A DNA stretch of 64,000 nt from NCBI RefSeq assembly GCF_964204645.1, contig NC_134029.1, positions 21,012,950-21,076,949 of the forward strand, written 5' to 3'. The notes below the pieces were generated by a model. The model searched no databases and was not told the origin of the DNA. It was given only the letters and a program-made list of their open reading frames with translations. The position numbers and the translations under genes were made by a program. The stretch's first letter is position 1; each line of letters starts with the position of its first letter. Positions 1 through 44,465 of the stretch are shown piece by piece. This DNA is from Tubulanus polymorphus (Eukaryota; Animalia; Nemertea).

Positions 1-830
1 AACAAGAATTAGAAGCCGCGAGATTACGTTATGAACGCGAGCGTGCTAGGATTTTACAACAGGCGGGCCAGCACGAAGATGAGAATCTCGGTCAAACTCG
101 AGATGAACAGATGCCTAGTGAGGACTTCGGCGACAGCGGACGAGAAAGTGGATACACAGTTGCAGAGGGATTGAAACAGGCGTTAGAATTGGGACAGGCG
201 ATTAAAAGTATGGAGAGGAGCTTAACCGAAGTAGCTGCTGCAGATCAGGACAATCCAGAAACCGGTGAGTCTAACGCGGAAAAATCCTCGCCTACGTCTG
301 AGGGAATTCCAGCGGTGAGGTTATCGGAAAGTACTGTTGATTCGAACTCAAAACATGTCCAACTCGGCGCGTTTAAAGTATACAATTTCTACCCGGACGA
401 CATATCTATAAAAACCATCGGACATTTCATTCATATCAGCGGTCGATATGAGATTTGTAAATGTAATAAGAACAACTGCGAAAAGAGCGAATTTCAACAT
501 CATTTCAGCATCTCACAATCTATCGATACCTCCAGTATTCACGCCACGCTAGACGCTGATAGAATTCTGAGAATACACGCTGTCGATTACGAGGGTACGG
601 TCATTGAACCTGAAGACAGGCAAATCCGTATTTTAGGACTTGGAATCGAGAAATCACGTCCCGCCACTTCGACCTCCTGTTCAGATGGTCAGCGGCCGGT
701 AGATTCGCCAACACCACCACAACCACCACCAGCCGATTACCCGAAAGTGGGAAAGGTCTACAACAAACCGAGAACGTTCGTTATTACCGCAGAACCAGAA
801 AAACATTTAAGAATCCTTGACGAACTCTAA
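1..830 (+). CDS. 3' part of a protein with an alpha-crystallin/HSP20-like domain; 5' end probably outside the window
   Basis: Frame is open from position 3 to TAA at 828-830. Segment FKVYNFYPDDISIKTIGHFIHISGRYE...FQHHFSISQSIDTSSIHATLDADRILRIHA fits the alpha-crystallin pattern. AATAAA signals at ~1113 and ~1138. Confidence 0.7.
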   Translation, partial: QELEAARLRYERERARILQQAGQHEDENLGQTRDEQMPSEDFGDSGRESGYTVAEGLKQALELGQAIKSMERSLTEVAAADQDNPETGESNAEKSSPTSEGIPAVRLSESTVDSNSKHVQLGAFKVYNFYPDDISIKTIGHFIHISGRYEICKCNKNNCEKSEFQHHFSISQSIDTSSIHATLDADRILRIHAVDYEGTVIEPEDRQIRILGLGIEKSRPATSTSCSDGQRPVDSPTPPQPPPADYPKVGKVYNKPRTFVITAEPEKHLRILDEL

Positions 831-1500
831 ATGCGAAGAAATAATGATGATACGGTTCGTCAATATTAATTATTCAATATATCATTAGATCAGCCTATAA
901 TGACTACTATACATATGTGATAAGGTATCATTCAAATCTAAGTAATGTATATAAAGCTTAAATTATATAACTTAAATATCATATTATATTATTTACTGTA
1001 AGGAACATTCAATTGTCTGTAATTACTAGATAATTTATAAAAGTGTTGTGTGTATTGATTGATATGATGTGGTTGTATCTCTTTATATAAATCTCAGTTT
1101 TTTACGCGTGTCAATAAATAAATGCATTTTTCATAACAATAAATGCTAGTTTTTAGTCTAAATTTGGATATGAAAATTAATCATCTCTATATCAACGGTT
1201 TATTATCCACTGAGGACCGAAGGAAACTGTTTAAAGCCAAAAATAGCCAAAAGAAAGTAGTGAAAGTCCCTATCGATCGGCCCCTTCGGTATTGAATTTA
1301 CACCTCCCTGGTAACGGGCAGTTTTCGGTTTGAACCAGCGTGCTAGCGCATAACGACGCTTAACAAACAGGTTATTACTTACATGAAATACACTACATTA
1401 ATGACAGAAAGGAGCTAAAGATTAGTCTTTTGATTTAGTGCAATGACGTAAAAGAATCACTCTGAAATTTTTAACTGAAAGAGTGCCACTTGCAAGGAAC

Positions 1501-4429
1501 TGTAGCGGAAATTCCGTGATGATGTTATAGGCGCCAAATTTAAATCACTTTCTTGCCTGCATAGCAGTTTTATAACCGGGCCAGAGCGCCAGTTTTGAAT
1601 CCCTCATGTATCGCCACAGATAGCGTCTAATATTTATAGATCCTTAAAATAGCACCAATTATTCAATTTCCTTATCCTTTATTCCCGTTTATAACCTGGT
1701 TACCTTTCTTACTGCGTTGCGGGACGAACTCAGCTCGCGTCCGGTCGAGTTGTGTTCGTTGGGGGATTTTACACAGACTATGTTGTCTTACCGTCTTTAT
1801 AACTATTCGGCGGAACCAGTTGTTCAAGAAATCAAACTGCTCTTAAAGCACATCAGTACGTCTTAAATCTTCTTACCAATACGTTCGTATTTATATCCTA
1901 ACGATGTTATATTGTGATATATGAATTCCGCTCTAGTGAAGTCGAGTAGCGCCCGGATTCGGGCCGGTTCAATTTGGTACTCCGCGGTGCCGACCGCTTG
2001 AGTGCTCCCTCTTTCGGTGAACTACATTTTTTTTGTAACTAATTGGAAGTTAAATATTCTCTTGATAATAAATCTTTTTCTTTTCGGAGTTTTTAATGCT
2101 CGACTCGGACCGGAGTTCGTATAAATAAATCTATGCTTGTAGGTTCCGATCGAGCGACGTCGTGGACGGCGGTCAGTCACGCGTGATCGTGACGTCACGC
2201 CGTACCACGTGATTTTCAACCTATTGGAGCGTAGCGGGGACAAAGGCGGGTAGCCAATCAGGACAACGCGGGGACAACGAGCCCTATATAAGGCGGGCAG
2301 CGCGCTAGTTTGGGATTCTGACCTGAGCGTCGACCACTCGCATGGTTCAATTTAGCTCTCTCTAACCAACGGATACTATATTCCAAGTTACAATGTAAGC
2401 AAGTTGTAGGCCTACCTCCCGCGTCCCGACGGGGACCGGGTTTCCTTTCCTCGGGGGGATGTGATTGAATTACGTTGCTTTTATTATTGGTAATTGTTAT
2501 TGTTTCCGTGCCGCGAGGTCCTGATTGTCCCCGGCCCTCCATGTTATTCTAAACTTCTGTAGTATTCGCCAATCATCACTGCGATAGTATTAGGTTGTCT
2601 CCAACGACAGCCCTTGTTTAAAGCTCTACCTAAGGTAATTCCCGTCCCGGGTGGGTGGATTTTGGCGATGGTGACTGGTTTGGGTAGGTTATTTCGGTCT
2701 CAGTCCGTTGACGGTCCAGATAGCTAGGCTATTGAAGACGACGAGGGTTATTGGTGCGGATGGTTCAGCCGCCTACGGGATTTGCCGGGTCCGGAGAGGA
2801 CGTCTGATGTCGATGGTTTGACCACCTACGGGAATGGTATATTGGTCCACGGAAAAGCGAAGAGAGCGAAGAATGGGGTCTGCCGGTCAGCCGTTAGACG
2901 AGAATCTGCAGAGACTGAGTTCCAGTCGGGTGCTGGCACTGTCGCCGATTTCTTCCCTCCCCTCCTTAAGCATTAATCGCCTTAATCATAGGGCATTACC
3001 CGTCCTATTCCACGAGAAGTATTATCGATCGACGATCGATCCCTCTAGTATTAAAATACGGACATTAGGTATTATTCTAACGAGTTTCCACATCATTGTG
3101 ATGCTGGGACTGGGGCACAGCGAGGACTATTCCTCTCTGTCTCCCAGTCGCTCGAAATACCTCACGCTTGAGTTCTAATTCGAGTTAGATGATAATCGGG
3201 CAGCTAAGCCGTTTGACTTTAGTAATGCGCCGGCGGGACCTAACCGTTTCGGCTATATCCGCCTCGCGTTTCAACCATTTATGCAATGCATCGTTGTAGA
3301 GTCGAATTTTATTCGGGGTCGCCTAGGCCTCGTTGCATTTATTTCCGCGGGCGATTTCGCGTGCGGTCCTTAGTATTTTTCTTAAAACTGAGTTGAGAGA
3401 GAAGGGTGAGGGAATATCATTTTTGACGGTATTTTATTTCGTTGGGTCACTTGACCCCCCTTGAGTTTCGGAATTTGTCGGGTGACGATCAACCATGCTG
3501 CCAGTGGTAGTCCAGGTCGAAACCAAGTCTCCCCTTGATGTCTTACTGCCTAAGAGGACCAGAGATGAGTGGCCCGAAGAAAGAAGGGCGGACCAGGGAA
3601 CTGATCAGTCCCTGCGTCGGACCACCAGTGAAGGCGAATTCCAACCAAGATGAAGAATCCCTGTAGTGGTAGTTCAAGAGGAGGCATTATCGAGTCGGTC
3701 CTTGGCCGGGTTCAGATATTGGGATCTGCTCATCGTCACCGACATTTCCGCTTCGGACTCAAGCCTTTTAATTATTTGACTCTCATAGTTCAACCCCCCC
3801 CCCCCCTTTTCTCTCTCTCTCTCATTTTTGGGTGTGAGCCTAATCGCGCCTTCGTACAATATTATATCCGTGGAACATGATTAGTTCTACGAGCCGTCGT
3901 TATGCCTAAGGACCAGTTTATAAATGTTATAAACGTCCCTTGTTCCTGGGGATTTCCGAGAGTACACATATTTTATTACGAGTATTGGGAGATTGCTTTG
4001 ATCTTGAGTGACGAGCAACACCCCGTTCTTTTAATCCGTTGTTGAGCTGAATAAACATGGCAATCGTTAATTTTTCACGAATAACGGTCTTATGTCTTAT
4101 TTTGAGTGGATATCTGAGTCTGAGTCAGTTCGACCTGTTTCGGGAACAACCTTGGAATGAGGACGCGCTACCATGGAAACGAAAGGATTCCGAGTTGTTG
4201 ATGATCGCCTTCAAGTTAAGGACGATTGGACCCGAAGACCCACCTAGAATCGATAGGAGGCACGACGTGTAGAGGGGATCCCCGACGAAGTTATTTGGCC
4301 CGGCCCGTGCGTTAGGGAGGCCAAGCTGTAGACCAGTACTGAGCGGCGGTATATTGTCTGGCGCAGCCATTGTGAGAAAATCTGGCCCGGAGAGCCAGTC
4401 GGTTACTGTGCCTGGCCTATTCGGTTACA
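1501..4429 (+). repeat. 5' LTR (2929 bp)
   Basis: Direct repeat of 10914-13840. Imperfect terminal inverted repeat TGTAGCGGAA...TTCGGTTACA. Followed by the PBS. Confidence 0.97.
2155..2320 (+). promoter_or_regulatory. LTR Pol II promoter (also present at +9413 in the 3' LTR)
   Basis: CRE TGACGTCA 2190-2197, E-box CACGTG 2206-2211, inverted CCAAT ~2223, GC box GGCGGG 2245-2250, CCAAT 2254-2258, TATATAA 2285-2291. TSS inferred at ~2315. Confidence 0.75.
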
Positions 4430-4432
4430 AAG

Positions 4433-4450
4433 TGGTGGCAGCGGTGGGAT
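4433..4450 (+). other. Primer-binding site complementary to the tRNA-Leu 3' end
   Basis: TGGTGGCAGCGGTGGGAT, 3 nt after the 5' LTR, is the reverse complement of the metazoan tRNA-Leu(AAG-type) end ATCCCACCGCTGCCA-CCA. Confidence 0.9.
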
Positions 4451-4729
4451 GCTTCGAGAAACACAGAGAAGAACTGACGCAGATGGAAACGGCGTTGAGA
4501 CCGGGATACCAGCCCCCTCAATTGTGTCGGACTCAGATATCTCACTTTTTTTAGTTAAAGAACCATTAATTCATATTTCTTTTGTGTCATGTTACACGTG
4601 TTGAATGGTTGCTCGTTGCTCTTGATAACCTGTTAAAATTTCTCTTGCTCGTTCCCGTAGGCAACCCTCATGACTATATACCCGTTCCTATTCCACCCTA
4701 ACGACTTTCCCCTTCCTCTAGCCAGCAAG

Positions 4730-5806
4730 ATGACTGATAGTAATAATACGGACAAAACCGTCGTCTCTGACGGAGAGGTAGAATATGAGACTACGACCCT
4801 TTTGAGTGGAGGAGACGGGCCTCAAGTAACCCCTGACTTTGGATCTTCTGATGACGAGGAGCCGATGGAGACTGCGGCCGAGGAGGAGGACGAGGACTGT
4901 GACCCGAACGAGAAGGGTGATGACAGACGCGTTCAATTCCGCTTGTCCCAGACTGAGCGGCAGAAACGTTACCGTATACGTCGCCCAGCGACCACGCCGG
5001 ACCGGTATGACGGGAAGACTAGTTGGACTGAGTTTGAGGCCCACTTTGACTCCGTCGCCTCCCTTAATAATTGGGACGACGACGAGAAAGCAATATACTT
5101 GGCCGTAAGCCTGAAGGGCGAAGCTCAACAAGTCTTGCGGGAGTTGACAATGGAGGAACGCAGAGACTATCGGTGCTTAATTTCGGCACTACAACTTAGA
5201 TTTGGTCCTAAGGTCAGAGAGGAATTATATACCGCGGAACTGAGAGCCAGAGTACGACGGCCGGGAGAGAGTTTACAGGAGTTAGGTCAAAGCATAAAGA
5301 ATCTAGTAGCCCGCGCGTATCCGGCCTCGGATAGAAAGACTAAAGACGCTCTCGCCAGATCCCACTTTATGGATGCCCTACAAGAGTCTGAGATGCGTAT
5401 GCGTCTGTTCCAAGCGAGCCCGAAGACCTTGTCGGAGGCAATCACCGCCGCCCTGGAGGTGGAAACGTTCCGTCGAATAGAGGCCCGCCGGGATACGAAT
5501 CACGTCTCCGGTAAGAAAGCGGCTGCTGCAGCCAGGAGTATTGCCGCCCAGCACCAAGACTCGGCGATGAAAGACGTCAGAGACCAGCTGGAGAAGCTAA
5601 CCGAACAGATGACCGCGTTAGCAGCTAAACTGGACACGAAGGCCGACAAAACTTCACCACCCAGGCAGTCAGCGCCCACCAATTACCAGTCTCGCATCAC
5701 CTGCTACAGCTGCGGACAACCAGGTCACATTTCGCGCAACTGCAATCAAAATCGCCCGGGAAATGCTTCCTCTCCGGTGCCAGGGGGCGTGGGCCGGAGA
5801 CAGTAG
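4730..5806 (+). CDS. gag: Gag (capsid domain + CCHC zinc knuckle)
   Basis: WDDDEKAIYLAVSLKGEA gag motif and CYSCGQPGHISRNC knuckle. ATG 4730 (CAAGATG) follows a splice-acceptor-like tract; an upstream in-frame ATG exists at 4670. Confidence 0.92.
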   Translation: MTDSNNTDKTVVSDGEVEYETTTLLSGGDGPQVTPDFGSSDDEEPMETAAEEEDEDCDPNEKGDDRRVQFRLSQTERQKRYRIRRPATTPDRYDGKTSWTEFEAHFDSVASLNNWDDDEKAIYLAVSLKGEAQQVLRELTMEERRDYRCLISALQLRFGPKVREELYTAELRARVRRPGESLQELGQSIKNLVARAYPASDRKTKDALARSHFMDALQESEMRMRLFQASPKTLSEAITAALEVETFRRIEARRDTNHVSGKKAAAAARSIAAQHQDSAMKDVRDQLEKLTEQMTALAAKLDTKADKTSPPRQSAPTNYQSRITCYSCGQPGHISRNCNQNRPGNASSPVPGGVGRRQ

Positions 5807-5826
5807 ATCAAATCGAGCAGCCCCCT
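5758..5826 (+). other. -1 ribosomal frameshift signal (slippery heptamer + pseudoknot)
   Basis: G GGA AAT at 5758-5764 in X XXY YYZ register with gag. The -1 frame is open into pol. Stem 1 TCTCCGG 5771-5777 / CCGGAGA 5794-5800; stem 2 AGGGGGC 5782-5788 / GCCCCCT 5820-5826. Confidence 0.8.
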
Positions 5827-8800
5827 CCAACAAACATCGTCCGGATTGCTAATTGCCACCCCGATAAAATCGCCGATAATGGACTTTACATAATTACCGA
5901 GATAGGACAAGTTCAGATGGCCCTCTTGGTAGATACTGGCGCCTGCCGAACTATACTCTCAAGAGCCGCATACGAAGCTATACCCAAGTCACACCGACCA
6001 CGGCTCAAACCATCCGACTTGAAACTTTTCGGACCAAGTAACAGCAAAATAACTGTTGGTGGGGTAACCACTTTGACCTTCCCGTTAGGTCAAAAACCGT
6101 TAAGGATTGACGTCATCGTCGCGGATATCGCTGGCGACGGGATTTTGGGGATGGACTTTCTGAAACGAACCGGCTCGTACCTGGATGTGGGTAATTCGTT
6201 GCTATTTTGCGGTAACGAAGAGATCGTCTGCCACACGAAGAATTCATTAGAACCCGAAACCGAATTATTAGCGAGGACCCTGGAAGCGATAGAAATACCA
6301 GCTCGACACCAGATGGTCATACCCACTTCTATCTCTGGGGATTCCGATATTCCATCGTTTGGTATCATCGAGGGTACAGGACGATACGAGGGCGGAGATC
6401 TGGCTGTGGCCCGAACACTGGTCGACACTCGAGAGCGGAGTTCCACTTGTGTTCGAGTGATGAATTTGGGATACAGCCCTATCCTTCTTCCGCAGTCTAC
6501 AGTCCTGGGAAGACTCATTACCGTTTCCACGATTCGAACCGTTGAGATGGAAGAAAAGAACTCAGAATCCGAAGAACCTAATGCGAACCACGACATTCCA
6601 GAACACCTGGAAGAACTGTATCAAGCCAGCGTAAAGAACCTCAGCCAGGAAGACGCTCCCTTGGTGGCGGAGCTACTGATTAAACATGCTTCAGCTTTTT
6701 CGGAAACCGATGAAGACCTGGGAAGGACAGATTTGGTCACCCATGAGGTGGACACCGGGAATCACCCACCCATACGACAGGCGCCGAGACTTCCTCCCCT
6801 GACCAAACGCAAGGAAACAGAGAATTTGATCGAAGACATGCATCGCCGCGGGTTGATAGAGAGGTCCCGGTCCCCCTGGTCGTCCCCGATTGTATTGGTG
6901 ACCAAGAAAGACGGAAGCACACGTTTCTGCGTGGACTATCGCCGACTAAACGAAGTAACGACCATAGAAAGCATGGCTATCCCGAATATCAATCGTTCGC
7001 TGGAATGTCTGGGAGGCGCCGTCTGGTTTAGCACCCTAGATCTGAATTCCGGTTATTGGCAAGTTACGTTGAGCGAGGACGCGAAACAGAAGTCCGCCTT
7101 CATTACGCAGAGTGGATTGTGGGAGTTCACTGTTCTTCCTTTCGGTATGTCCGGAGCTCCGGGAACCTTCGAAAGATTGATGGAAATGGTCTTAACTGGG
7201 CTCCAGTGGGAGATTTGTTTAATATACCTCGACGACGTGTTGGTGTTTAGTAGCTCCGTTAAAGAGATGGTCGAACGGTTGGACCTCATCTTCAGTAAAT
7301 TGGAAGAAGCCGGACTCAAACTTAAACCCCGCAAGTGCTCGCTTTTCCAGCGGTCGGTAGTTTTTCTCGGGCACGTGGTTAGTCACGAGGGCATACAGAC
7401 AGACCCGTCCAAGATCCAGTGTATACGGGATTGGCCAACGCCCAGAAATGTCAAGGAAGTTCGTAGTTTCTTGGGCCTTGCCACTTATTACAGGAGATTC
7501 GTCGCCGGTTTCGCGAAGATCGCGGGCAGCCTCCACAGACTCACGACTAAAGACCAAGATTTTATCTGGGGGGACGAGCAGGAGCAAGCTTTCCGGGAGC
7601 TGAAAGAGAAGTTGACCAACGCACCCATCCTAGCATACCCGAATGTCACGGACCCGTATATATTGGATTGCGACGCTAGTGCCTTCGCCATCGGAGGCGT
7701 GTTGAGTCAGGTGCAAGGAAACGAGGAACTCCCGATCGCATTTGGAAGTCGCACGCTCAACCGCGCGGAACAGAACTACTGCGTGACTCGGCGTGAATTA
7801 TTGGCGGTCGTGTTCTTCGTGAAGCATTTTAAGCACTATCTCTACGGACAAGATTTTCTCATCCGCACTGATCACAGCGCCCTCCGTTGGCTGATGAATC
7901 TGAAGGAACCCGAAGGTCAAATTGCCCGTTGGCTGGAAGCCTTGTCGACTTATCAGTTTCGGATTGAGCACCGTCCCGGAGTAAAACACGGTAACGCTGA
8001 CGGGTTATCGAGGATGCCGTGTAAGCAGTGTGATAAGATAGGGTATATACACGTGATCGAAGACGGAGTCGTCGAATCTCAATTAGATGAACCGTGGGAC
8101 TTAGAGGAGCTCAAGTCAGCTCAGAGAACCGACGAAGATCTAGAGTGGGCGATCGACGGGTTGATAGCCGGCATCTCCAAGCCACCGTGGCGAGACGTCT
8201 CAGATAAGAGTACCAACGCCAAACGATATTGGGCTCAGTGGGAGCTTCTATCGTTCAACAACGAGATTCTATTCCGGGAGTGTAGATCTGAGGATGGATT
8301 TTCCCAACTGATTGTTCCTCCGAATTTCCGTCGTACTATTTTTCACCAACTCCATTCGGCTCGTACCGGGGGACACCTAGGGATCGAGAAAACTCTTTCC
8401 AAGTTACAACAGAGGTATTACTGGCCCGGGATGAGAGAAGATATTGAGTTATGGGTGAAGCAATGTGAGCTCTGTCCTCGGAAGAAACCCCCGGCAAAGA
8501 AATTTCAGGCTGAACTTCAGATTTACAACGTAGGAGCACCCATGGAGCGTATCGCCGTAGATATTATGGGCCCCCTCCAGGAGACCACGGCCGGCAACGT
8601 CTATGTCGTCGTTGCTATGGACTATTTTACCAAATGGGTTGAATGTTACGCTATTCCCAATATGGAGGCCGAGACGGTAGCCAACAAACTAGTGACAGAG
8701 TTTTTCAGCCGTTTTGGCGTACCTCGTGAGCTCCATACTGATCAGGGTTCGAATTTTCAATCCAAATTATTCAAAGAAGTCTGCATCCTCCTCGGTATAA

Positions 8801-9507
8801 AACAAACCCGCACTACTCCATACAGGCCCCAGAGTGACGGTATGGTCGAGCGTTTTAACCGCAGTCTGATATCGATGCTGTCCCTGATGTCTGCCGATGA
8901 CCCCTTCGACTGGGATTTACAGTTGCCGTTCGCTGCGATGGCTTATCGTGCGGCTAGACATAATACGACTGAAGCCTCTCCGAACTATCTGATGTTGCTG
9001 CGGGAGGTAGATCTCCCCGTAGACCTCATAGTTGGCCTTCCGCCTAAAGACAAGTTCCCGTCGACCACTGAGTACGTCAGCCAGCTTCGGAAACGGATGG
9101 AGACAGCCCACCGCGATGCCCGGAAAGCGTTAGCAAAGAATACTCTTCGTCAGAAGAATCTCCATGACCAACGACGTTATGGGAAACCATATGAGGCCCG
9201 GGACCTTGTGTGGCTGTACCAACCGAAAATCACGAGCGGAAATCCCAACCGGAAGTTTCAGTTGAATTGGACAGGACCATACACCGTCTTACAGAAGCGC
9301 TCTGAAACAGTCTACGAAATACAAGATATGCCGACCAACGCCCCCAAAATAGTACATTATGACCGACTAAAGCCTTATCTGGGAACCCAGTACCTGGGTT
9401 TAAATCACGACGCAACCGAGCTGACTGTAACTGACACTCCTACTTCCCAACGGAGGAGCTCGCGGGTTCCTACTCAACGACGGGATGAGTCCTTTCTGTA
9501 CCTTTAG
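5758..9507 (+). CDS. pol: Pol polyprotein (protease, reverse transcriptase, RNase H, integrase with GPY/F motif)
   Basis: LVDTGA protease, YLDD at 7225-7236, LDCDAS RNase H, HHCC and DDE integrase motifs (VDIMGP, HTDQG, VER), WTGPY. Frame is open from the slippery site; first Met at 5917. Confidence 0.97.
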   Translation, partial: GKCFLSGARGRGPETVDQIEQPPPTNIVRIANCHPDKIADNGLYIITEIGQVQMALLVDTGACRTILSRAAYEAIPKSHRPRLKPSDLKLFGPSNSKITVGGVTTLTFPLGQKPLRIDVIVADIAGDGILGMDFLKRTGSYLDVGNSLLFCGNEEIVCHTKNSLEPETELLARTLEAIEIPARHQMVIPTSISGDSDIPSFGIIEGTGRYEGGDLAVARTLVDTRERSSTCVRVMNLGYSPILLPQSTVLGRLITVSTIRTVEMEEKNSESEEPNANHDIPEHLEELYQASVKNLSQEDAPLVAELLIKHASAFSETDEDLGRTDLVTHEVDTGNHPPIRQAPRLPPLTKRKETENLIEDMHRRGLIERSRSPWSSPIVLVTKKDGSTRFCVDYRRLNEVTTIESMAIPNINRSLECLGGAVWFSTLDLNSGYWQVTLSEDAKQKSAFITQSGLWEFTVLPFGMSGAPGTFERLMEMVLTGLQWEICLIYLDDVLVFSSSVKEMVERLDLIFSKLEEAGLKLKPRKCSLFQRSVVFLGHVVSHEGIQTDPSKIQCIRDWPTPRNVKEVRSFLGLATYYRRFVAGFAKIAGSLHRLTTKDQDFIWGDEQEQAFRELKEKLTNAPILAYPNVTDPYILDCDASAFAIGGVLSQVQGNEELPIAFGSRTLNRAEQNYCVTRRELLAVVFFVKHFKHYLYGQDFLIRTDHSALRWLMNLKEPEGQIARWLEALSTYQFRIEHRPGVKHGNADGLSRMPCKQCDKIGYIHVIEDGVVESQLDEPWDLEELKSAQRTDEDLEWAIDGLIAGISKPPWRDVSDKSTNAKRYWAQWELLSFNNEILFRECRSEDGFSQLIVPPNFRRTIFHQLHSARTGGHLGIEKTLSKLQQRYYWPGMREDIELWVKQCELCPRKKPPAKKFQAELQIYNVGAPMERIAVDIMGPLQETTAGNVYVVVAMDYFTKWVECYAIPNMEAETVANKLVTEFFSRFGVPRELHTDQGSNFQSKLFKEVCILLGIKQTRTTPYRPQSDGMVERFNRSLISMLSLMSADDPFDWDLQLPFAAMAYRAARHNTTEASPNYLMLLREVDLPVDLIVGLPPKDKFPSTTEYVSQLRKRMETAHRDARKALAKNTLRQKNLHDQRRYGKPYEARDLVWLYQPKITSGNPNRKFQLNWTGPYTVLQKRSETVYEIQDMPTNAPKIVHYDRLKPYLGTQYLGLNHDATELTVTDTPTSQRRSSRVPTQRRDESFLYL

Positions 9508-9586
9508 GCCTAGGCGGTTCGCCGACTCCTACCCTAACTCAACGCTTTACTTATGTGGGACCCGGCTGTTCTTTTCTTTTCTTTAG

Positions 9587-10619
9587 GACGCGAGAGAAGT
9601 GCCACGGATGCCATTATCACTTCCGTGACTCGGCAACTTTGCAGCGACACCAGGAGACGTGTGACTCGATCGCACGCGTTGGAGTCTCCTATCGATGCAC
9701 CGCGTGCGGGAAGACGGGCTCTCGGGCCGATTCTATCCGGAGACATGCGCGCCGGGATCACCGAACCCCGACTAAGGTCTTAAAAGTCGTAGAGGAACTC
9801 TGGGACCAGCCTCCCCGTGTCTCCCTGGGTGAGGGCGAACCACCAACGAAACGCGCGAGAGATAATTCTTCGTCGGAGCCGCAAATCGTTAATTCTTCGT
9901 CGGAGCCGCAAATCGTTAATTCTCCGTCGGAGCCACAGATCGTTAATTCTTCGTCGAAGCCGCACACCGTTAATTCTTCGTCGGAGCCGCAGATCGTTAA
10001 TTCTTCGTCGAAGCCGCGCACCGTTAATTCTCCGTCGGAGCCACAGATCGTTAATTCTTCGTCGAAGCCGCACACCGTTAATTCTTCGTCGGAGCCGCAG
10101 ATCGTTAATTCTTCGTCGAAGCCGCACACCGTTAATTCTTCGTCGGAGCCGCAGATCGTTAATTCTTCGTCGAAGCCGCACACCGTTAATTCTTCGTCGA
10201 AGCCGCACACCGTTAATTCTTCGTCGAAGCCGCTCACCGTTAATTCTTCGTCGAAGCCGTACACCGTTAATTCTTCGTCGGAGCCGCAGATCGTTAATTC
10301 TGCGTCGAAGCCGTACACCGTTAATTCTTCGTCGGAGCCGCAGATCGTTAATTCTTCGTCGAAGCCGCTCACCGTTAATTCTTCGTCGGAGCCGCAGATC
10401 GTTAATTCTTCGTCGAAGCCGCGCACCGTTAATTCTTCGTCGGAGCCGCAGATCGTTAATTCTTCATCGAAGCCGCTCACCGTTAATTCTTCGTCGGAGC
10501 CGCAGATCGTTAATTCTTCGTCGAAGCCGCGCACCGTTAATTCTTCGTCGGAGCCGCAGATCGTTAATTCTTCGTCGAAGCCGCGCACCGTTAATTCCCC
10601 TTCGCGTGCCGTTCTGTAG
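9587..10619 (+). CDS. ORF3: accessory protein with C2HC + C2H2 zinc fingers, PxVxL motif, NLS-like PPTKRAR and a Ser-rich 9-aa repeat tail; lacks its own ATG
   Basis: CHGC-x12-H-x3-C and CTAC-x12-H-x4-H. Preceded by branch point CCCTAAC (9532-9538), a polypyrimidine tract and AG (9585-9586). The listed ORF start at 9555 is GTG. Confidence 0.75.
9864..10592. repeat. Tandem array of 27 x 27-bp units with two mostly alternating unit types
   Basis: Type A AATTCTTCGTCGGAGCCGCAGATCGTT (NSSSEPQIV); type B AATTCTTCGTCGAAGCCG(CAC/CGC/CTC/TAC)ACCGTT (NSSSKPxTV). Total 729 bp. Confidence 0.97.
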
Positions 10620-10894
10620 AAAGATGGCGGTCGCAGCCGAGATCGATTGGGATCCGCCCGCGCGTAGTTCTTCGGCGCCTTTCGGTGAGGTGCATGTGCA
10701 CCCGTTGCCGCTGGGAGATATGATCATCTATGGATTCGACGACATGCCCGTCGACTGCGTAGCGTGCGAGATTGAAACGTCTTACGCTTAACTTTCGAAC
10801 CGGTCGTCGGTCGTTCTTACATATAAAAAAAAAAAAAAAACCTTCTTATCGCATTATATCATGTTACTTTCTTTCTTTCTCACGCGGGACGCGT

Positions 10895-10913
10895 GAAGGC
10901 TGGGAGGGGGTGG
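10895..10913 (+). other. Polypurine tract
   Basis: GAAGGCTGGGAGGGGGTGG directly before the 3' LTR. Preceded by hairpin TCACGCG-GGA-CGCGTGA (10880-10896). Confidence 0.85.
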
Positions 10914-13840
10914 TGTAGCGGAAATTCCGTGATGATGTTATAGGCGCCAAATTTAAATCACTTTCTTGCCTGCATAGCAGTTTTATAACCGGGCCAGAGC
11001 GCCAGTTTTGAATCCCTCATGTATCGCCACAGATAGCGTCTAATATTTATAGATCCTTAAAATAGCACCAATTATTCAATTTCCTTATCCTTTATTCCCG
11101 TTTATAACCTGGTTACCTTTCTTACTGCGTTGCGGGACGAACTCAGCTCGCGTCCGGTCGAGTTGTGTTCGTTGGGGGATTTTACACAGACTATGTTGTC
11201 TTACCGTCTTTATAACTATTCGGCGGAACCAGTTGTTCAAGAAATCAAACTGCTCTTAAAGCACATCAGTACGTCTTAAATCTTCTTACCAATACGTTCG
11301 TATTTATATCCTAACGATGTTATATTGTGATATATGAATTCCGCTCTAGTGAAGTCGAGTAGCGCCCGGATTCGGGCCGGTTCAATTTGGTACTCCGCGG
11401 TGCCGACCGCTTGAGTGCTCCCTCTTTCGGTGAACTACATTTTTTTTGTAACTAATTGGAAGTTAAATATTCTCTTGATAATAAATCTTTTTCTTTTCGG
11501 AGTTTTTAATGCTCGACTCGGACCGGAGTTCGTATAAATAAATCTATGCTTGTAGGTTCCGATCGAGCGACGTCGTGGACGGCGGTCAGTCACGCGTGAT
11601 CGTGACGTCACGCCGTACCACGTGATTTTCAACCTATTGGAGCGTAGCGGGGACAAAGGCGGGTAGCCAATCAGGACAACGCGGGGACAACGAGCCCTAT
11701 ATAAGGCGGGCAGCGCGCTAGTTTGGGATTCTGACCTGAGCGTCGACCACTCGCATGGTTCAATTTAGCTCTCTCTAACCAACGGATACTATATTCCAAG
11801 TTACAATGTAAGCAAGTTGTAGGCCTACCTCCCGCGTCCCGACGGGGACCGGGTTTCCTTTCCTCGGGGGGATGTGATTGAATTACGTTGCTTTTATTAT
11901 TGGTAATTGTTATTGTTTCCGTGCCGCGAGGTCCTGATTGTCCCCGGCCCTCCATGTTATTCTAAACTTCTGTAGTATTCGCCAATCATCACTGCGATAG
12001 TATTAGGTTGTCTCCAACGACAGCCCTTGTTTAAAGCTCTACCTAAGGTAATTCCCGTCCCGGGTGGGTGGATTTTGGCGATGGTGACTGGTTTGGGTAG
12101 GTTATTTCGGTCTCAGTCCGTTGACGGTCCAGATAGCTAGGCTATTGAAGACGACGAGGGTTATTGGTGCGGATGGTTCAGCCGCCTACGGGATTTGCCG
12201 GGTCCGGAGAGGACGTCTGATGTCGATGGTTTGACCACCTACGGGAATGGTATATTGGTCCACGGAAAAGCGAAGAGAGCGAAGAATGGGGTCTGCCGGT
12301 CAGCCGTTAGACGAGAATCTGCAGAGACTGAGTTCCAGTCGGGTGCTGGCACTGTCGCCGATTTCTTCCCTCCCCTCCTTAAGCATTAATCGCCTTAATC
12401 ATAGGGCATTACCCGTCCTATTCCACGAGAAGTATTATCGATCGACGATCGATCCCTCTAGTATTAAAATACGGACATTAGGTATTATTCTAACGAGTTT
12501 CCACATCATTGTGATGCTGGGACTGGGGCACAGCGAGGACTATTCCTCTCTGTCTCCCAGTCGCTCGAAATACCTCACGCTTGAGTTCTAATTCGAGTTA
12601 GATGATAATCGGGCAGCTAAGCCGTTTGACTTTAGTAATGCGCCGGCGGGACCTAACCGTTTCGGCTATATCCGCCTCGCGTTTCAACCATTTATGCAAT
12701 GCATCGTTGTAGAGTCGAATTTTATTCGGGGTCGCCTAGGCCTCGTTGCATTTATTTCCGCGGGCGATTTCGCGTGCGGTCCTTAGTATTTTTCTTAAAA
12801 CTGAGTTGAGAGAGAAGGGTGAGGGAATATCATTTTTGACGGTATTTTATTTCGTTGGGTCACTTGACCCCCCTTGAGTTTCGGAATTTGTCGGGTGACG
12901 ATCAACCATGCTGCCAGTGGTAGTCCAGGTCGAAACCAAGTCTCCCCTTGATGTCTTACTGCCTAAGAGGACCAGAGATGAGTGGCCCGAAGAAAGAAGG
13001 GCGGACCAGGGAACTGATCAGTCCCTGCGTCGGACCACCAGTGAAGGCGAATTCCAACCAAGATGAAGAATCCCTGTAGTGGTAGTTCAAGAGGAGGCAT
13101 TATCGAGTCGGTCCTTGGCCGGGTTCAGATATTGGGATCTGCTCATCGTCACCGACATTTCCGCTTCGGACTCAAGCCTTTTAATTATTTGACTCTCATA
13201 GTTCAACCCCCCCCCCCTTTTCTCTCTCTCTCTCATTTTTGGGTGTGAGCCTAATCGCGCCTTCGTACAATATTATATCCGTGGAACATGATTAGTTCTA
13301 CGAGCCGTCGTTATGCCTAAGGACCAGTTTATAAATGTTATAAACGTCCCTTGTTCCTGGGGATTTCCGAGAGTACACATATTTTATTACGAGTATTGGG
13401 AGATTGCTTTGATCTTGAGTGACGAGCAACACCCCGTTCTTTTAATCCGTTGTTGAGCTGAATAAACATGGCAATCGTTAATTTTTCACGAATAACGGTC
13501 TTATGTCTTATTTTGAGTGGATATCTGAGTCTGAGTCAGTTCGACCTGTTTCGGGAACAACCTTGGAATGAGGACGCGCTACCATGGAAACGAAAGGATT
13601 CCGAGTTGTTGATGATCGCCTTCAAGTTAAGGACGATTGGACCCGAAGACCCACCTAGAATCGATAGGAGGCACGACGTGTAGAGGGGATCCCCGACGAA
13701 GTTATTTGGCCCGGCCCGTGCGTTAGGGAGGCCAAGCTGTAGACCAGTACTGAGCGGCGGTATATTGTCTGGCGCAGCCATTGTGAGAAAATCTGGCCCG
13801 GAGAGCCAGTCGGTTACTGTGCCTGGCCTATTCGGTTACA
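10914..13840 (+). repeat. 3' LTR (2927 bp)
   Basis: Matches the 5' LTR. The only difference seen by eye is a C-run of 11 versus 13, shifting the offset from 9413 to 9411. Confidence 0.97.
13461..13466 (+). terminator. Probable polyadenylation signal of the retrotransposon (5' LTR copy at 4050-4055)
   Basis: The only AATAAA I found in the LTR downstream of the TATA box; followed by U/GU-rich sequence. Confidence 0.55.
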
Positions 13841-14196
13841 GAACTTAAGAATGATCAATCTGAATAGAAAGTTGGTACCGTATACGTTTTGCACAGAAAT
13901 ATGCATTGTGGAATAGTTGATTATAACCGCAGATGAACCGAGCCGGAACCGGCCTCGCGGGTGTGCGGTCACATAAAACCTTTATCGGTATATGTAGATA
14001 CTTAGCTCGATTGCATTATTTATTCGATAGACGGCGCCAAAGTCGGTGAATCATTGTGGAGCAATGCGGAAGTAATGATTAAATCGGAGACTTGCGGGAA
14101 TTGTTTCAGAATATTTGTCTATGATTTAAGTGAATGAATACGTCGTGAATTAATCAGTTAAACGCTCATTGTACGAATGAATGACACGCGTGAAGA

Positions 14197-17100
14197 ATGG
14201 CCAGCGAAAAACGAGAACGCGTTAAATTCGGGCATCATGACAGCGGAGTTAGTTCTTCAGTTGATGACAGCTCGTCGTCGTCGCAGTCCGAAGCAACCAG
14301 TCCGGTATCGACTACGTGCGCTTCGTCAGTCGGTGCCTTCACCGATCCGAAACAAGTGGACATGAAAACTGCCGACTCAAATTCGAATATGTCGACGGAT
14401 TCTAGCGACACGATGACCGACTCGGCGTCCTTGATCGCACGAGCTTCGAATGATAATTCTTCCGTCACGTTGTCTATGCAAAGTTCGTTAAGTTTCGACG
14501 AAGCCGACGGACACCTACCGCTGAACGCGTCGGAGTTCGCGGTGACATATCTCGGTAATCTGGTATTGGACCGACGCTACACTCAACCGATGCTTCCGTG
14601 GGTAATGGCCGAAGTGCGTCGTCGAAACGACGTGCTGTTCGTGAATCTGGAAATATGTCGCAACTATCTGAAAGCTCGACGGATGGACAACGGCGAGTTA
14701 CACTTCGAACATCGGCTTCAGAGTTTGTCGCGATTCGCGAAAACCCACCGTGACCCGAAATGTTTCGCTTATTTGACGCGACCGAATTCCGATTCGCCGT
14801 TTACGTGTCATGTTTTCGAAGCTTCGAGTGAATCCGATGTAAGTATGTGTAATGTCTACAAATGTCTGGCGTCGTGAAAACGTTTTAAACTTCAATCGTC
14901 TTAGTTTGAATTGTTGCCCATATTGAAAGTAACCAATAGCGATTAAACCGACGATTTGCGTTTAACTTTTTCTTGAAACTCGACCCGAGGCTTGATTTCG
15001 GCAGTATCCCATTGGGTGCTAGATTTTTTGTTGGGATATACTAAAACTTGAAATGAAACTGATTTCGCCCTTAGAAAGGCAAACTGAGATATCAACGCTT
15101 TGACACCTTGATGGGATACTGACAAAGAGATGATACTCTCTAGGATTGTTTAAATCGAGCATTGTTCATATAATTTGATTACTAAATATTTAGATTTAGA
15201 GGTGCACAGTTTAGGTGCCCCTAACCTAGCCTTAACCCTTAGTAATAGATGTGCCTAATATCTGGAAGATGACCTACTTTATTCAGAAGACTCGCCAGTT
15301 ACCCTGAATTGAATGCATGACCTTGGAGTAATTACACCAAGGTATGACTACGGTTCACCATAAAAAACCACACTTTTACTCAAGGAACAATTGTTATTTT
15401 TAAGCAACCTTTGAATACTCGTGTCCCCAAACTTTATTCAACCTGACCTAGGTAGTATTATTAGGACTCTATCTCTTGTACAATTCCGATAACAAAGGTT
15501 TATCAAATCCCCGAGTTACCCACGTTATCTTATCAACCTTATATGGAGGGTCTAAAAGCCAGACGTTATTGTTTCTGTATACTGGCGTAGTTGAAATCCA
15601 AACAAATTACTTTTCTCAAAATTTATCCCGATATTTTCTAGAGAGGGTGCGAGCTTATCAATGAGGAATATTGATTCGTATGAAATATACAGTCTGTAAT
15701 CTTGAGCAGTCTGTAGACTAGGCCTATATGAGTAGCATTAATTCTCCATTGTGTCACCGTTGTTGGACACAATAGGAAAATTTGCTTAATCAACAGAAAA
15801 AGTGATAGTATTTTTGTCCCCATGACTCATCAGAGCGAAGGGGGCTTTACCATCCATCCGTTCGTAGGTTTCTTTTGTACGGAATACGGGCATCTGTGGA
15901 TAGAATCTTATGAAACTTTATGATATGATGTCAGATCATGAAGGCAAAGCACGAGCCCTATTGATTTTGGAGGTTCAACCTTTCAAGATGACTGGTTCGG
16001 TTGGCCTTTTACAATAATGGAACTGTTCGTACCTATTCCGTAGTTGAACCGACAGGTTTTCTGCCTTTTCATCGGGTCAACTCCTCGATATCCTGAGACC
16101 CACTTTCTTCATTCGTATCCCTTATGGTATTCATGCCATGGACATTTTGTTGTTTTCGTGTCATCAAACAAGCATGTGATTCAATCGCAGCATTGTTTTT
16201 CGATTAATTACATATAATCTATAGTATTATAGCTAGCCCGGGTTCAGGTAAGCCTACAGCTGTGTCTGCGCAGTGAACCCTCTAGACGAGAATGTAATTA
16301 CCACTTAGAATCGCAGTATGAGGTGAAAAGCCATGTATAACACTTCGAAAATGTTGTTGTTTATTTACTATAAAATCGATGCGTTTTTCTCGCGGCAAGC
16401 ATTAGAAAATTTGATGTTTTATCAATAGATCAATACTGCGCCGTGTTTGATGATGATGGCATCGCGATGTAAGCACGATTCTCCCTAGACTTCCAATAAT
16501 GTTTATATATCGGTACAAAAATGTACAATGTGTTCATATATAAATTACGACTTGCTCTGTTCACACCCACCCTCTTTCACTAAGGCAAAACATACATTTT
16601 TGGATTTGTATCATGATCGGTCCAACTGTAAGTTTGTTTTCTCGGTGTTCATTCGTTTGGACAAGATTTTCATTTTCCTTTCCTCGAATTGATATATTTC
16701 AGGTGCCGCACTTGTTCAAAGTCATTCGGGAGGCGACGAAGGTCGCGGTTAAAGACCACCATCAACACACGGGGCGCGAAGGTCGTCAGGTGGAGAACAT
16801 GGGCGAGCTGATGCGCGCCGGATACCAATTCTTCGAGGTTCTCTACACGGGCCGAGTTCGCGTTTCGCAGAAGAACGCCCCGCCAACGTTCATCGACGAT
16901 ACGGTGAATAAATTCCTCGAGCAGCAGAAATTGAAAGCCGAAGAGGCCGCCACCGCCGTCGCGAAAGAGGCGAAACTCGACGACGGCCGGGAACGCCACA
17001 GTAGCGGAAACAGCGTACGAAGTTTGCCGAATAGTTTAGAAAACGCGGTCAACGTGAAAGAAAACGAGTTGAAAGAAAGCGAGGATAAAAGCAGCGACGG

Positions 17101-20100
17101 GTTGAATACGAGCGGCGAGCTGGTGGAGAGTACGTCGTGTAGCGAGACGACCAGTTCAAACGAACAACTACTCGATTCATCGCCGCGAGATAATAACGAT
17201 AATACGGTCGTTGAAAAACAGCCGAAACAACAACAACAGCAACAACGTCCCGCGCGTAAATTGAGCAATACGAAAAAACCGCACAGAAAGTTGTCGAATC
17301 CGCACGACAATCGAACAATGTTATTCCAGATCGGACACGAGGAAATCAGTCTGATCAGTCTCGATAAGAAGTCGATCATTTTGGACCGGAATTTTAAGGA
17401 TATATCGTTTTGCTCTCAGGTACGTGGTTTGGAATATCGGTGAATTTCTCAGTCGAATACGAAGTGGTTGTTTCTTTCGAAATGAATTTGATTGCAAATA
17501 GTCAACCCCCCTGATATGCCGCCTACATCAGTGCAGAACGATTTTGGCAGTATATCGGGGGTGTTTTACTGTGTATTTGTATAGAGATGTACATCGAGAA
17601 AACCTGGGGGTATTTGGTAGGGTGGTATATTGGGGGTTGACTGTAATACATTTTTCTTATTTCCTGGCTTAATCATTGATACAGAAAAATACCGGGAACT
17701 CATCTTTTGATTCAAGAAAACCTGCTGATTTATGACTTTAGTTTAAGCAGTGCCTTAATTTGCCTCAGTCCGTCTGCTACAAACCCTGCTAGAAGAAGAA
17801 ACGTTTAGATTTTTAATCGAAATCGATTTCTTTTTTTAGGGAGTTCAACATCCAGAACATTTTGGATTTATCTCGCGGGAGCCGAGCTCTAGCTCATTTA
17901 TCTGTTACGTATTCCAGTGCGCGTCGGATATCGTGGTAAGTTAGCGCCATCGTTTCCCCTCATCAACCACCCACGTCCCACTCGCTTATTGATATATGGA
18001 TTCACCAGAATTTTGCCGATATTGAGATGTACGACAACGAGCCGAGCAATAAATCTAAAGAGCTTTTCCGTCGAGCATAAAATCTCTATCATCTCCATCT
18101 GAGGATGGAATAAAATGTCAGATTTTGGCTCCATAATTCTCTTCTCTCGCGACTGACGCTGACAGAATAAACAATAAGAACCTCTGTTTTAGTTGTTGTT
18201 TGTTATGCTCTCAGACTCAGCTGATTGTGTTTCGTACTGTTTACAAGCGAGGTGAAGGTCGGACGGTAATCATAGGCAACTTTAGATGCAGATTTATAGC
18301 TCGCCCTACTATGTAATAGTTTATGCTACTATCGTTTTGTTGACGTTTCATCCTATTATCCGCTGATTAAATGAACAACAACATTGAGATACAGTGCATT
18401 CTGTTCCCTCTCAACTATACAACAACAATGTATTTATATACATGTATTTCGAACTACATTCAACCAACGCTATTCATTGCAACAGATGGTTCACCGGGCT
18501 ATTATTGCACGCATGGAGATCTCTGCGATAAAATCAATTACATAAGTTTCATTTGACACAGACGTTTACAAATAAAGGCATTGAATTTCTTCTTTCTTTT
18601 TTGATTGATAGGAAGTACAGATTTTGTGTCCTGCATTTTTGACAAACTGTTTTTGCATACAAAAACTCCAGACACCGTACTTTATCAGGCGCTTAAAAAT
18701 CCTTTAAAACCGAAAATTCTTGTGCTTGAAACTCCTTTAATCTGAGCAAAATACTTAGAATTCCTTCAATTTTTAGAAATAGGGAATTAGACATTTTTTC
18801 TAGTTTATATTTGTACCATAAGCTATGCCTGTATTGGTACATTTGGGACCAGGATTTTTTCTACCCGAAAGGTGGTTACGCAATTAGTAACCGAGTGTAG
18901 TAGTGTATAGGAGAAAAGTTTGCTTACAAAATGACCAAATAAACGGGTTTACTGAGATGATTTAGGAGTCTAATAGTAATTAGGATATGAACGCAATGCG
19001 GACACTTCCTCGAAATTTGAAATTTTTTCGTTTAAAACTTAATATCCAGGAACATCTGTAGGGACCCTGATTATGCAATCCATCTATGGGAAGATGTTGT
19101 TGATTGTCTCTTTATTTCAGGTCGAAGATGTGATGCAAGCTTTAAAGATGGCATTTGACGCAGCGTATAATAAGTTTCATACGCGAAATCATATTGTGTG
19201 TGAAATGTGTCCGATGCATCAGTTGCACAAACTCTGTCAGGATATCGATGGTTAGTGATGTTCAAATTGTTCGACGATTTAAGCCCGGACTGACCTGAAA
19301 AACTTGGGGAATCAGAAAAATCTTGAAAAAAATCAGGGAATTCGTAAATAAGCATTGAGTGGCCACCCTGCAAGAAAGACTACAAATGAATGAAATTATG
19401 CACTGCGCTTGGGGTTGGCGGCTTCCGATGGCCTCGAATATTATCGAACTTTGAAAAAAAATTTTCGAATACTTTGAAGAATGCAGGTTGTTGAAATATG
19501 GTGGTGACGATTCTGGAAAACCAAGGGAACTAATTTCTCTCAGGGAAAAATAGGGAATTTTATAGAATTTAGAAGAAAACCAGAATGAAGAAGTCTCAGT
19601 GAAAGCTGTTTTTACGTATCTATACCGGGCTTATTCTCTGCCTACCGGGTCTGTATTTGTGAACGTTTCCTTTTTATCGGAGTGTATACGCCTTCAAAGT
19701 GTGGAAGTCAAATTATTTGCTTTTTCGTGGAACTACTAATGGAATCTAAAATCTGCCCTCGCACGAAAATCACATGCAATCTTCTAATGTGGAAAATGTC
19801 ATTTTAAGCCCTGTGGTTAACGGCAGGTAATGCGACATGAATAATCTCAATTCATCGCGGCGAATGAGTTTCGCGTAGGTGTTTTTTCATTTTTCCGTCG
19901 CGCGATGATAAAGAAAGTTCAAGTTTGATGTGTATCTTAGATTTCTTCCTTCGTTTGATCACTGTTTGGTACCGGTGTATCTAGAAGGCTATCGCCGAGA
20001 CACACTGGATCAAAGTCGCGTCATTCTGTGTTCTGTATAATCATATGCTAGTTAATTAGGATGCTATGAAATCGGGGTTTGTAGCGAGTCTGATAATTTC

Positions 20101-42900: not shown

Positions 42901-44465
42901 TTTACATCGTCAATCCCTCCCAGTCATCAAGCAGTTTTTGGCTTCCGCGTCTTAGAATAGGGATTGACCCTGCTATTTATTTGATCGGTAGATTTTGTAT
43001 GATCTTTATAATTTGGTGTCCCTTACAAACCCACCACACCTGCCGGGAGCGAAACAGGGGGTTTGATTTTGAAATCGGAAATCGAAGTACGGTTTTAACC
43101 GACGGAAGCTGCACTGTGACTGAAAAAAAACAAACCGCTTCTGACGTTCGCGTCATAGTCGATCTAAACACTTATTTTGCGACAGTTACAACCATCACCG
43201 CGCATCGCCAAGTCGACCCTTGAAGTATTTGTATAGAGGAGTATCAGCATTGATTAATAAGCACTTTTAGCTTGTGAAAAATCGTCAAATAACCAATGCA
43301 TTATAAGAACCATGCAACAAAGTATTCTTTATTCTGTATATAAAGAAAAACGAATAATTATTCACAGTCAGCACTAATCCTGACGACTGCTTATACGTAT
43401 ATGCTATAATTATGACATATTACGCTCCATTACAGTCCATTATTTTTATGTTACGGGAAGACTATGATATTTGTCCGCGAAATGATTATATTTTCACTGG
43501 ATTGTATTTTTAATTTCATGTCCGTTCCGTCGTCCCAATAAGAGCCTATCGAATATACATACACCGAATATTTTGCGAATGTGATAGGGTGTAAAAAAAA
43601 AATCGACTTAGCGATAGGCGTATTTGTATGAGGTAGATTTTGCCGGCGAAATTTCATAAATTTCATGCAGAAATAATTCACCTGCTGTCAGTGCGCTGAA
43701 AGCGTCGGTACTGTTATTCTCGTTGTCGTAATTCAAGCGTGTTTCAATTATTGCTTGTTTAATCGGTGTTGTAGATAAATAAATCTCATTCGTCTGTTTA
43801 ACCTCGACCAGTACTGGTTTTACGTTAGCGCTATGCTGAACGTACTAGCACGCGGGGCCTAATACCTACTGGGCCCCTATGTCTCTAAGCAAGCATTTCG
43901 TATATACATAAGATTGTGCTCGACCACTTTGAAGACATCGTAGAAGATTTACCGGAATTTTAACTCTTCAAGTTTGAAGTAAGCGATATTTAAAGTGTCG
44001 TGTATTTATCTAATCAAATATACTTGTTTAAATGTCAAATCATTGTGACCAGTCACCACATTGAATGTACACCAAATGTATATCAAGAGAAAATTAGATG
44101 ACTTTTTAAAAACTGGCCTAACTGTTATTTTGTTATTATTTGAAGTTCAGCGTATTCTGAACGTTACAAATTAAATAGATTTATCAAATTGAAATGAGGT
44201 TAAAACCTTTATTTGCAGTCAAGGCACCCCATGAATATATCAATTATTTTGTTAATCCAAAAACTATTCGTAGTACAACCTGCCACTTCCATTGAATATC
44301 TGAACATTAAATGATTTTTGGAAATATTAGGAAACGAATTATTCAAGTTTGAATTCAAAACTCAAAACAAAAAGTCGTTTGTACTTTCTATGGTATAATT
44401 TAGATGTTCGTTTCTCGAAATATAGAACGCCACAGATTTTCAGAAAGTATGATTTTGATTTCAGA

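Follow-up and report, generated by a model that had tools for sequence, protein, structure and literature searches.

Several genetic elements encode regulators of their own activity. The P-element repressor is produced through intron retention, foamy viruses have Tas and Bet, Arabidopsis has the VANC anti-silencers, and the integrase of Ty5 is targeted through Sir4. In HIV, tat and rev have one exon in common that is read in two frames. Like the products predicted here, these accessory products arise by splicing and act on how the element itself is expressed, silenced or targeted, and within this set, HIV tat/rev included, one acceptor read in two frames is similar to the predicted arrangement of two open reading frames, ORF3 and ORF4, at the present locus. 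To our knowledge, none of the P-element repressor, Tas/Bet, VANC, Ty5 or tat/rev uses a C2H2-plus-PxVxL design.

The Cer1 element of C. elegans encodes CERV, described as a 517-aa protein that has its N-terminus in common with Gag and exports genomic RNA (PMC10309623). The product predicted here differs in having 115 or 344 aa, fingers of the C2H2 type, HP1-like motifs, and a start codon formed at a splice junction.

Known proteins that direct an HP1 box against retrotransposons, e.g., KAP1 and ADNP, are tools of the host. KAP1 (TRIM28), a corepressor, is recruited to DNA through KRAB fingers, whereas here fingers and motifs would be found in one element-encoded protein. In the KAP1 HP1 box (PMC12126490), the residues matched by the first motif of the predicted protein, once spliced, are P486, R487, V488, L490, E491 and R492. 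ADNP in ChAHP (PMC11293393) and Kipferl with Rhino (PMC9531945) likewise bring together a sequence-specific zinc-finger protein and an HP1-family protein at transposon DNA. Both are host-encoded and large with many fingers, in contrast to the predicted protein, which the element itself encodes and which has two fingers and possibly two motifs.

The Retrotransposon

An intact, young Ty3/Gypsy LTR retrotransposon occupies positions 1501-13840 of the window (the whole 64-kb stretch of DNA that was analysed). Its parts are:

1497..1500 (+), target-site duplication GAAC, 4 bp; other copy at 13841-13844
1501..4429 (+), 5' LTR, TG...CA, 2.9 kb, with a TATA-like box at 2285
4433..4450 (+), primer-binding site, which we take to be tRNA-Leu-like
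4661..5806 (+), gag open frame with a CCHC knuckle
5629..9507 (+), pol open frame (protease, RT, RNase H, integrase), overlapping gag in a different frame
10899..10913 (+), purine-rich tract ahead of the 3' LTR
10914..13840 (+), 3' LTR

The structural features of Ty3/Gypsy elements are all present (two LTRs, TG...CA ends, target-site duplication, primer-binding site and polypurine tract), and the gene order is that of the group, with gag followed by a pol that reads protease-RT-RNase H-integrase. The two LTRs show 0 mismatches over 2,927 aligned bases and differ by a single 2-nt gap in a C-run. The env gene of the Errantivirus type was not detected, no env family being matched after pol in a profile search. 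The 5' LTR is unusually long and has several strong donor and acceptor sites. It also holds an open frame of 118 codons (2822-3178) without a Pfam match, and AATAAA candidates occur at LTR positions equivalent to 11480, 11537, 12463 and 13461. No tRNA genes were detected in the 64-kb window, and no Rfam matches in 9400-14000.

ORF3 and Its Zinc Fingers

The frame of ORF3, open over 9489-10619, contains no ATG. Its start codon would be formed by splicing, with AT from an LTR donor at 2394 joined to an exon at 9587. Among five LTR donors tried, this one alone gives ORF3 an in-frame ATG. Both sites score well; the ranks given here and below refer to the 745 GT and 755 AG sites of the element and come from an approximate splice matrix.

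2393..2400 (+), LTR donor AT/GTAAGC (GT 2395-2396; junction 2394), rank 9 of 745 GT sites
9564..9586 (+), ORF3 splice acceptor, AG 9586, rank 1 of 755 AG sites
9587..9828 (+), predicted exon 2, 242 nt, with fingers 1 and 2 and motif 1
9600-9662 (+), finger 1, C-C-H-C, ending in Cys
9696-9761 (+), finger 2, C2H2, with G in place of the usual aromatic residue

Joining the same donor to 4661 (2394^4661) would give a 4-codon ORF that ends at the first gag ATG, in an ATGA overlap at 4670-4673.

ORF3 matches PF00096 with 36.1 bits (cut-off 25.2) and an E-value of 7e-9 over two stretches, and the C2H2 spacing is present. Apart from zf-C2H2, the profile search gave a low-complexity match to herpes ORF30 over the repeats that follow the fingers. 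The linker between the fingers is four residues over canonical length. In a single-sequence structure model (mean pLDDT 57.7) only finger 1 is folded, and residues 45-72 fall below 50. By alignment, the helix of finger 2 has R in position -1 and D in position +2, a combination typical of DNA-binding fingers under the recognition code. The target predicted from that code, GYGGYC, is not clearly enriched in the LTR, with 7 occurrences in 2.9 kb vs 9 in the 5.2 kb of gag-pol.

A Predicted Second Intron and the Tandem Array

Between the fingers and the 3' LTR lies a minisatellite that the preliminary description proposed to be removed as part of a second intron.

9829..10619 (+), predicted intron, 791 nt, GT-AG
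9863..10597 (+), tandem array with 27.2 copies of a 27-nt unit (9 variants) and two open frames
10591..10619 (+), acceptor TAG preceded by a branch-like TTAAT (A 10594) and a pyrimidine tract
10620..10723 (+), predicted exon 3, 34 codons in the frame of the 115-aa product

The GT (9829-9830) and AG (10618-10619) named in that proposal do bracket the array, which falls entirely within the 791-nt interval, with the donor 34 nt 5' of it. The donor, TGG/GTGAGG, has rank 10 of 745 GT sites and is the sole strong one scored in exon 2, where five other GT sites rank no better than 281. The acceptor, ending ...TTCTGTAG, has rank 29 of 755 AG sites and is the first AG past a branch-like YTNAY whose A (10594) lies 25 nt upstream. 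The interval 9829-10619 thus has the donor, branch site, pyrimidine tract and acceptor of a GT-AG intron, and from these signals the junction 9828^10620 is probably used. Computation reproduced the lengths given earlier for the two products: 344 aa without splicing (stop 10617-10619) and 115 aa via 9828^10620 (stop 10721-10723). Nothing in the analysis supported a further part of the proposal, that intron retention switches between these two isoforms.

Read in the frame of the fingers, the array encodes 27 nine-residue repeats after a basic stretch; the PPTKRAR ahead of it resembles a nuclear signal. The codon states of the array variants are synonymous in 3 of 11 cases when read with the fingers and in 4 of 11 in the second open frame, against a neutral expectation of about 0.28 that was computed for the neighbouring exon. 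The array is without sign of coding constraint. Because it is open in two frames with few synonymous states, its openness is not a mark of coding. The second open frame, Arg/Ser-rich, extends over 9793-10791 and continues into ORF4. There are 25 GYGGYY matches in the array, one base off the finger target predicted from the code.

Other splices were considered and rejected. Motif 2 is followed by another strong donor-like site:

10685..10690 (+), TCG/GTGAGG, just 3' of motif 2, rank 11 of 745 GT sites

In a sister copy its +5 base is altered. The 33-nt intron that it could define (10685-10717) would leave the frame unchanged, and 33 nt is generally too short for an intron. Donor 9828 joined to the AG at 10636 or 10717 would put the fingers in frame with ORF4, using acceptors of ranks 368 and 315 of 755, respectively.

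PxVxL Motifs

Predicted exons 2 and 3 carry one motif each.

9813-9827 (+), motif 1, PRVSL, in predicted exon 2
10658-10681 (+), motif 2, PRVVLRRL (core 10658-10672), in predicted exon 3

For Drosophila HP1a, one study gives a code of 3-6 basic residues in -4..+4 in flanks where acidic or aromatic residues are few. It reports that each of the 16 functional peptides is basic at +4, and finds PxVxL alone insufficient for binding (PMC12526061). Both motifs have the core P-x-V-x-L and are 18 residues apart in the 115-aa product; as claimed before, the junction gives PRVSLER and exon 3 adds PRVVLRRL. Motif 2 fits the expanded HP1a code, with four basic residues in -4..+4, R at +4, and no acidic residue within seven positions. 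Motif 1 depends on splicing. Its +4 residue is E in the unspliced form (with G at +5) and R after splicing, so that a basic +4 is found in motif 2 and spliced motif 1 and is lacking in unspliced motif 1. With 2 basic, 2 acidic and 2 Trp residues, spliced motif 1 falls below the Drosophila-derived rule of 3-6 basic residues. The preliminary description had the unspliced form retain PRVSL and the repeats. Both are present; however, given E at +4 and G at +5 and the rule of PMC12526061, the 344-aa form is probably a poor HP1 ligand rather than one with a retained HP1 box.

Statistics on the motifs are inflated, since the motif class was chosen post hoc, and the following values overstate significance: when exon 3 was shuffled 20,000 times with dinucleotides preserved, the frame of the 115-aa product contained PxVxL in 1.1%, the full pattern PxVxLxR-hydrophobic in 0.045%, and a junction yielding x-R-hydrophobic after PRVSL in 3.8%, and the background of PxVxL-x-[KR] was 19 per 706,596 six-frame codons of the window and 80 loci, with the window's own match counted. 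The element has 24,674 six-frame codons and a single PxVxL-x-[KR] match among them, in the motif 2 frame of exon 3, and this is the frame forced by donor 9829 and acceptor 10619. Though inflated, these statistics are the main support for the HP1 reading. Should the junction be used, HP1 binding by the product is slightly favoured. An origin of motif 2 as a degenerate array unit was rejected, 111 of 500 shuffles matching its similarity.

An alternative, judged unlikely, is that the junction is real and HP1 is not involved. The protein would then be an LTR transactivator or Rev/CERV-like, with its Arg-rich tail acting as a nuclear signal or as an RNA-binding arm that aids export of unspliced genomic RNA. 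The element has many strong splice sites, so unspliced RNA would need help, and the tail is indeed rich in Arg. In addition, two papers describe a spliced 3' accessory protein of Cer1 that is needed for genomic RNA export (PMC10309623) and degenerate PxVxL patterns that match more than half of the fly proteome (PMC12526061). On the other side, both motifs fit the extended pattern, six residues of the KAP1 HP1 box recur in motif 1, and the fingers resemble DNA-binding C2H2 fingers.

ORF4 and the Sister Copies

Exon 3 is overlapped by a further ORF.

10624..10791 (+), ORF4, 55 aa, in a frame other than that of exon 3, which it overlaps; stop 10789-10791

Its ATG lies 4 nt past the acceptor in a strong context (A at -3, G at +4), which gives the acceptor a purpose without the second intron. 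The C-terminus of ORF4 is an acidic tail that contains CxxC.

Sister copies of the element were compared in contigs of runs X1-X3 (one study, two samples) over 1400-9862 and 10598-11100, with the array excluded, so that a splice across it would not show up as a joint. The runs behave as DNA: the LTRs are deeper, the flank at the LTR end is different, and 0 of 5 joints are GT..AG. Contig loose ends in these DNA runs include none at 9828 among the 18 of 64 listed and none at 10620 among the 14 of 21 listed. One contig has a 27-nt loose end that is absent from the window within 3 mismatches. Many of the contigs are diverged sister copies (90-95% alike), and internally deleted copies also occur, lacking 4894-5645, 5057-5160, 7958-8381 or 2679-4237.

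For 10598-11100, 29 substitutions were listed; the 15 in 10644-10791 were classed, and 14 are located past 10791. More than one contig contributes to the list, one substitution being private to the window and one found in near-identical copies; one contig has 13 differences, few of them among those listed. In the ORF4 frame 10 of the 15 differences are synonymous (P 0.002, or 0.012-0.021 if CpG sites are given 5- to 10-fold higher rates); when CpG-type sites are left out, third positions account for 5 of 8 (P 0.09). Beyond 10723 the proportion is 7 of 8 (P 0.0007-0.007). The ORF4 stop at 10789-10791 is retained in the sisters, and indels affect four sites at 10791-10805 and none in 10624-10790. 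Conserved as coding in the sisters, most clearly over 10719-10791, this is likely a fourth ORF, of 55 codons.

The frame of the 115-aa product fares differently in exon 3. There, 6 of 7 listed sister differences alter the protein, and the stop at 10721-10723 is lost in three sister contigs (two of X1, one of X3), while near-identical copies keep it. Apart from the stop, the changes are mostly mild: I->L, V->I at a non-core motif position, R->K, I->T and S->L. A BLOSUM-cost test of this frame in the main sister gave P 0.11 when the stop codon was left out and 0.37 when it was included, neither value being significant. In the sister of about 90% identity, the one listed change in motif 2 is the non-core V->I, and its P, V and L and the R at +4 and L at +5 show no listed change in the diverged sister. 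In exon 2, the differences are those among the 40 of 245 rows listed, none falling in 9781-9862, and 5 of 9 are synonymous. A 1-nt gap at 9766 occurs in one of the sister contigs, and one further contig has only 10718-10775 in common, with unrelated sequence before it.

Of the zinc-finger protein with HP1 motifs that had been proposed, the splice signals and the motifs, whose statistics are above chance, hold up, whereas the loss of the stop and the predominance of protein-altering changes speak against it. The conservation looked for in its exon-3 frame is carried by the overlapping ORF4 frame, which the proposal had overlooked. Up to 10723, where the two frames overlap, 3 of 7 differences are synonymous in the ORF4 frame vs 1 of 7 in the other, neither being significant. 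Because neither frame is significantly constrained within the overlap and the ORF4 signal lies mostly past 10723, dual coding of exon 3 and ORF4 is possible. The stop of the 115-aa product forms an ATGA overlap (10720-10723) with an internal ATG of ORF4 that is not retained in the sisters. Coupled reinitiation is possible at this overlap and at that of 4670-4673.

It is also possible, with a probability that should be put rather low, that acceptor 10619 serves ORF4 only. ORF3 would then be a 344-aa finger-repeat protein, or the donor at 9829 would be rarely used, and the HP1-like motifs would be by-products of reading an Arg-rich off-frame sequence. The conserved ORF4 frame with its retained stop and freedom from indels, the strong start context just past the acceptor, and the loss of the 115-aa stop in three contigs are all in accord with this. 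The array is, moreover, open in the finger frame and preceded by PPTKRAR, which resembles a nuclear signal. However, a strong donor 34 nt ahead of the array is left unexplained, two extended HP1-type motifs must be attributed to chance, the array is without coding constraint and open in a second frame too, and the ORF4 signal is not significant within the overlap.

The third frame of this region contains a heptapeptide (10734..10754, +) identical to the end of the helix of finger 2 (9735-9755), encoded by mostly different synonymous codons. A match of six or more residues between finger 2 and the third frame was reached in 0 of 1,500 shuffles and in 0 of 36 other stretches of the element. The 3' tail could be what is left, in scrambled form, of an early duplication that included finger 2 with its flanks and was later overprinted by ORF4, in which case motif 2 would be an echo of exon 2 and carry less weight. 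The exact match and a CxxC upstream in the frame of the 115-aa product (10697-10708) point that way. The match was found after the fact, however, and a frameshift-aware alignment, reached by 72 of 3,000 shuffles, scores no higher than the heptapeptide alone. DNA similarity of exon 3 is not significant either, whether to the pre-array segment (135 of 500 shuffles) or to the array (111 of 500), and the third frame of a sister copy has stops. Such a duplication is rather improbable.

Searches for Relatives

At E 0.01, no homologue of the ORF3 N-terminus was found among 5 candidates. ORF3 gave 276 matches at E 0.001 against 1.84 billion representatives; the 150 of 276 listed were all finger-only, generic zinc-finger-like, and at most 47% identical. 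An Atlas search with ORF3 gave generic finger clusters only. ORF4 has no homologue in sequence searches and no Pfam family. Relatives of the integrase were found in 80 metagenome loci at 30-60% identity, and none in viral contigs. A finger pattern matched in 7 of the 80 loci, none a credible third gene on inspection. Of 35 loci examined, 23 have at least 1 kb downstream, none with a similar ORF; these loci are too distant to gauge conservation.

Literature searches were negative. No C2H2 accessory gene of an animal Gypsy element appeared among titles and the beginnings of abstracts, PRVSL was not linked with HP1 in the literature searched, and no zinc-finger ligand of HP1 encoded by an element came up in that literature, from which most subscription papers and repeat-database reports are absent.

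A Possible Mechanism

The best reading of the locus is a spliced zinc-finger HP1 tether together with a small fourth ORF. Since a probable junction has to be combined with an HP1 interaction that is slightly favoured once the junction is granted, this reading as a whole is tentative. One LTR donor would serve several acceptors, those of gag, ORF3 and 10620. Joining exon 2 to 10620 would remove the array and produce a 115-aa two-finger protein with two HP1-type motifs. Skipping of exon 2, with exon 1 joined to 10620, would give ORF4. The fingers may bind the element's own DNA, and the 27-nt array could serve as a candidate binding platform for them. By tethering HP1 to that DNA, the 115-aa protein would act as a self-limiting brake.

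This role is preferred because host zinc-finger partners of HP1 concentrate HP1 at their target DNA, as described for ADNP/ChAHP (PMC11293393) and Kipferl-Rhino (PMC9531945). If HP1 is bound, repression has a little under an even chance, anti-silencing by occupation of the chromoshadow cleft is almost equally likely, and integration targeting is improbable.

In its most complete form the preferred reading is a miniature, element-encoded equivalent of a KRAB finger protein plus KAP1, with HP1 boxes completed only by splicing of a minisatellite intron and an acceptor that also feeds an overlapping microprotein. This combination is doubtful. If true, the choice of splice would determine the heterochromatin state of the element, a small and direct example of host heterochromatin under the control of an animal retrotransposon that thereby limits or protects itself. 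Even without HP1 binding, the element has two accessory ORFs without detected homologues.

Flanking Sequence

Downstream of the insertion there are two host open frames, 14194-14877 and 16544-17443 (+), each with a PTB/PID-domain match. A FAM184-like coiled coil is encoded at 44331-45350. The PTB and FAM184-like matches suggest that the host is an animal. The window also contains an inverted repeat at 46387-46510, with 51 nt that are 90% complementary and 22 nt between the arms, and a pair of 114-nt inverted arms at 28448-28561 and 35358-35471.
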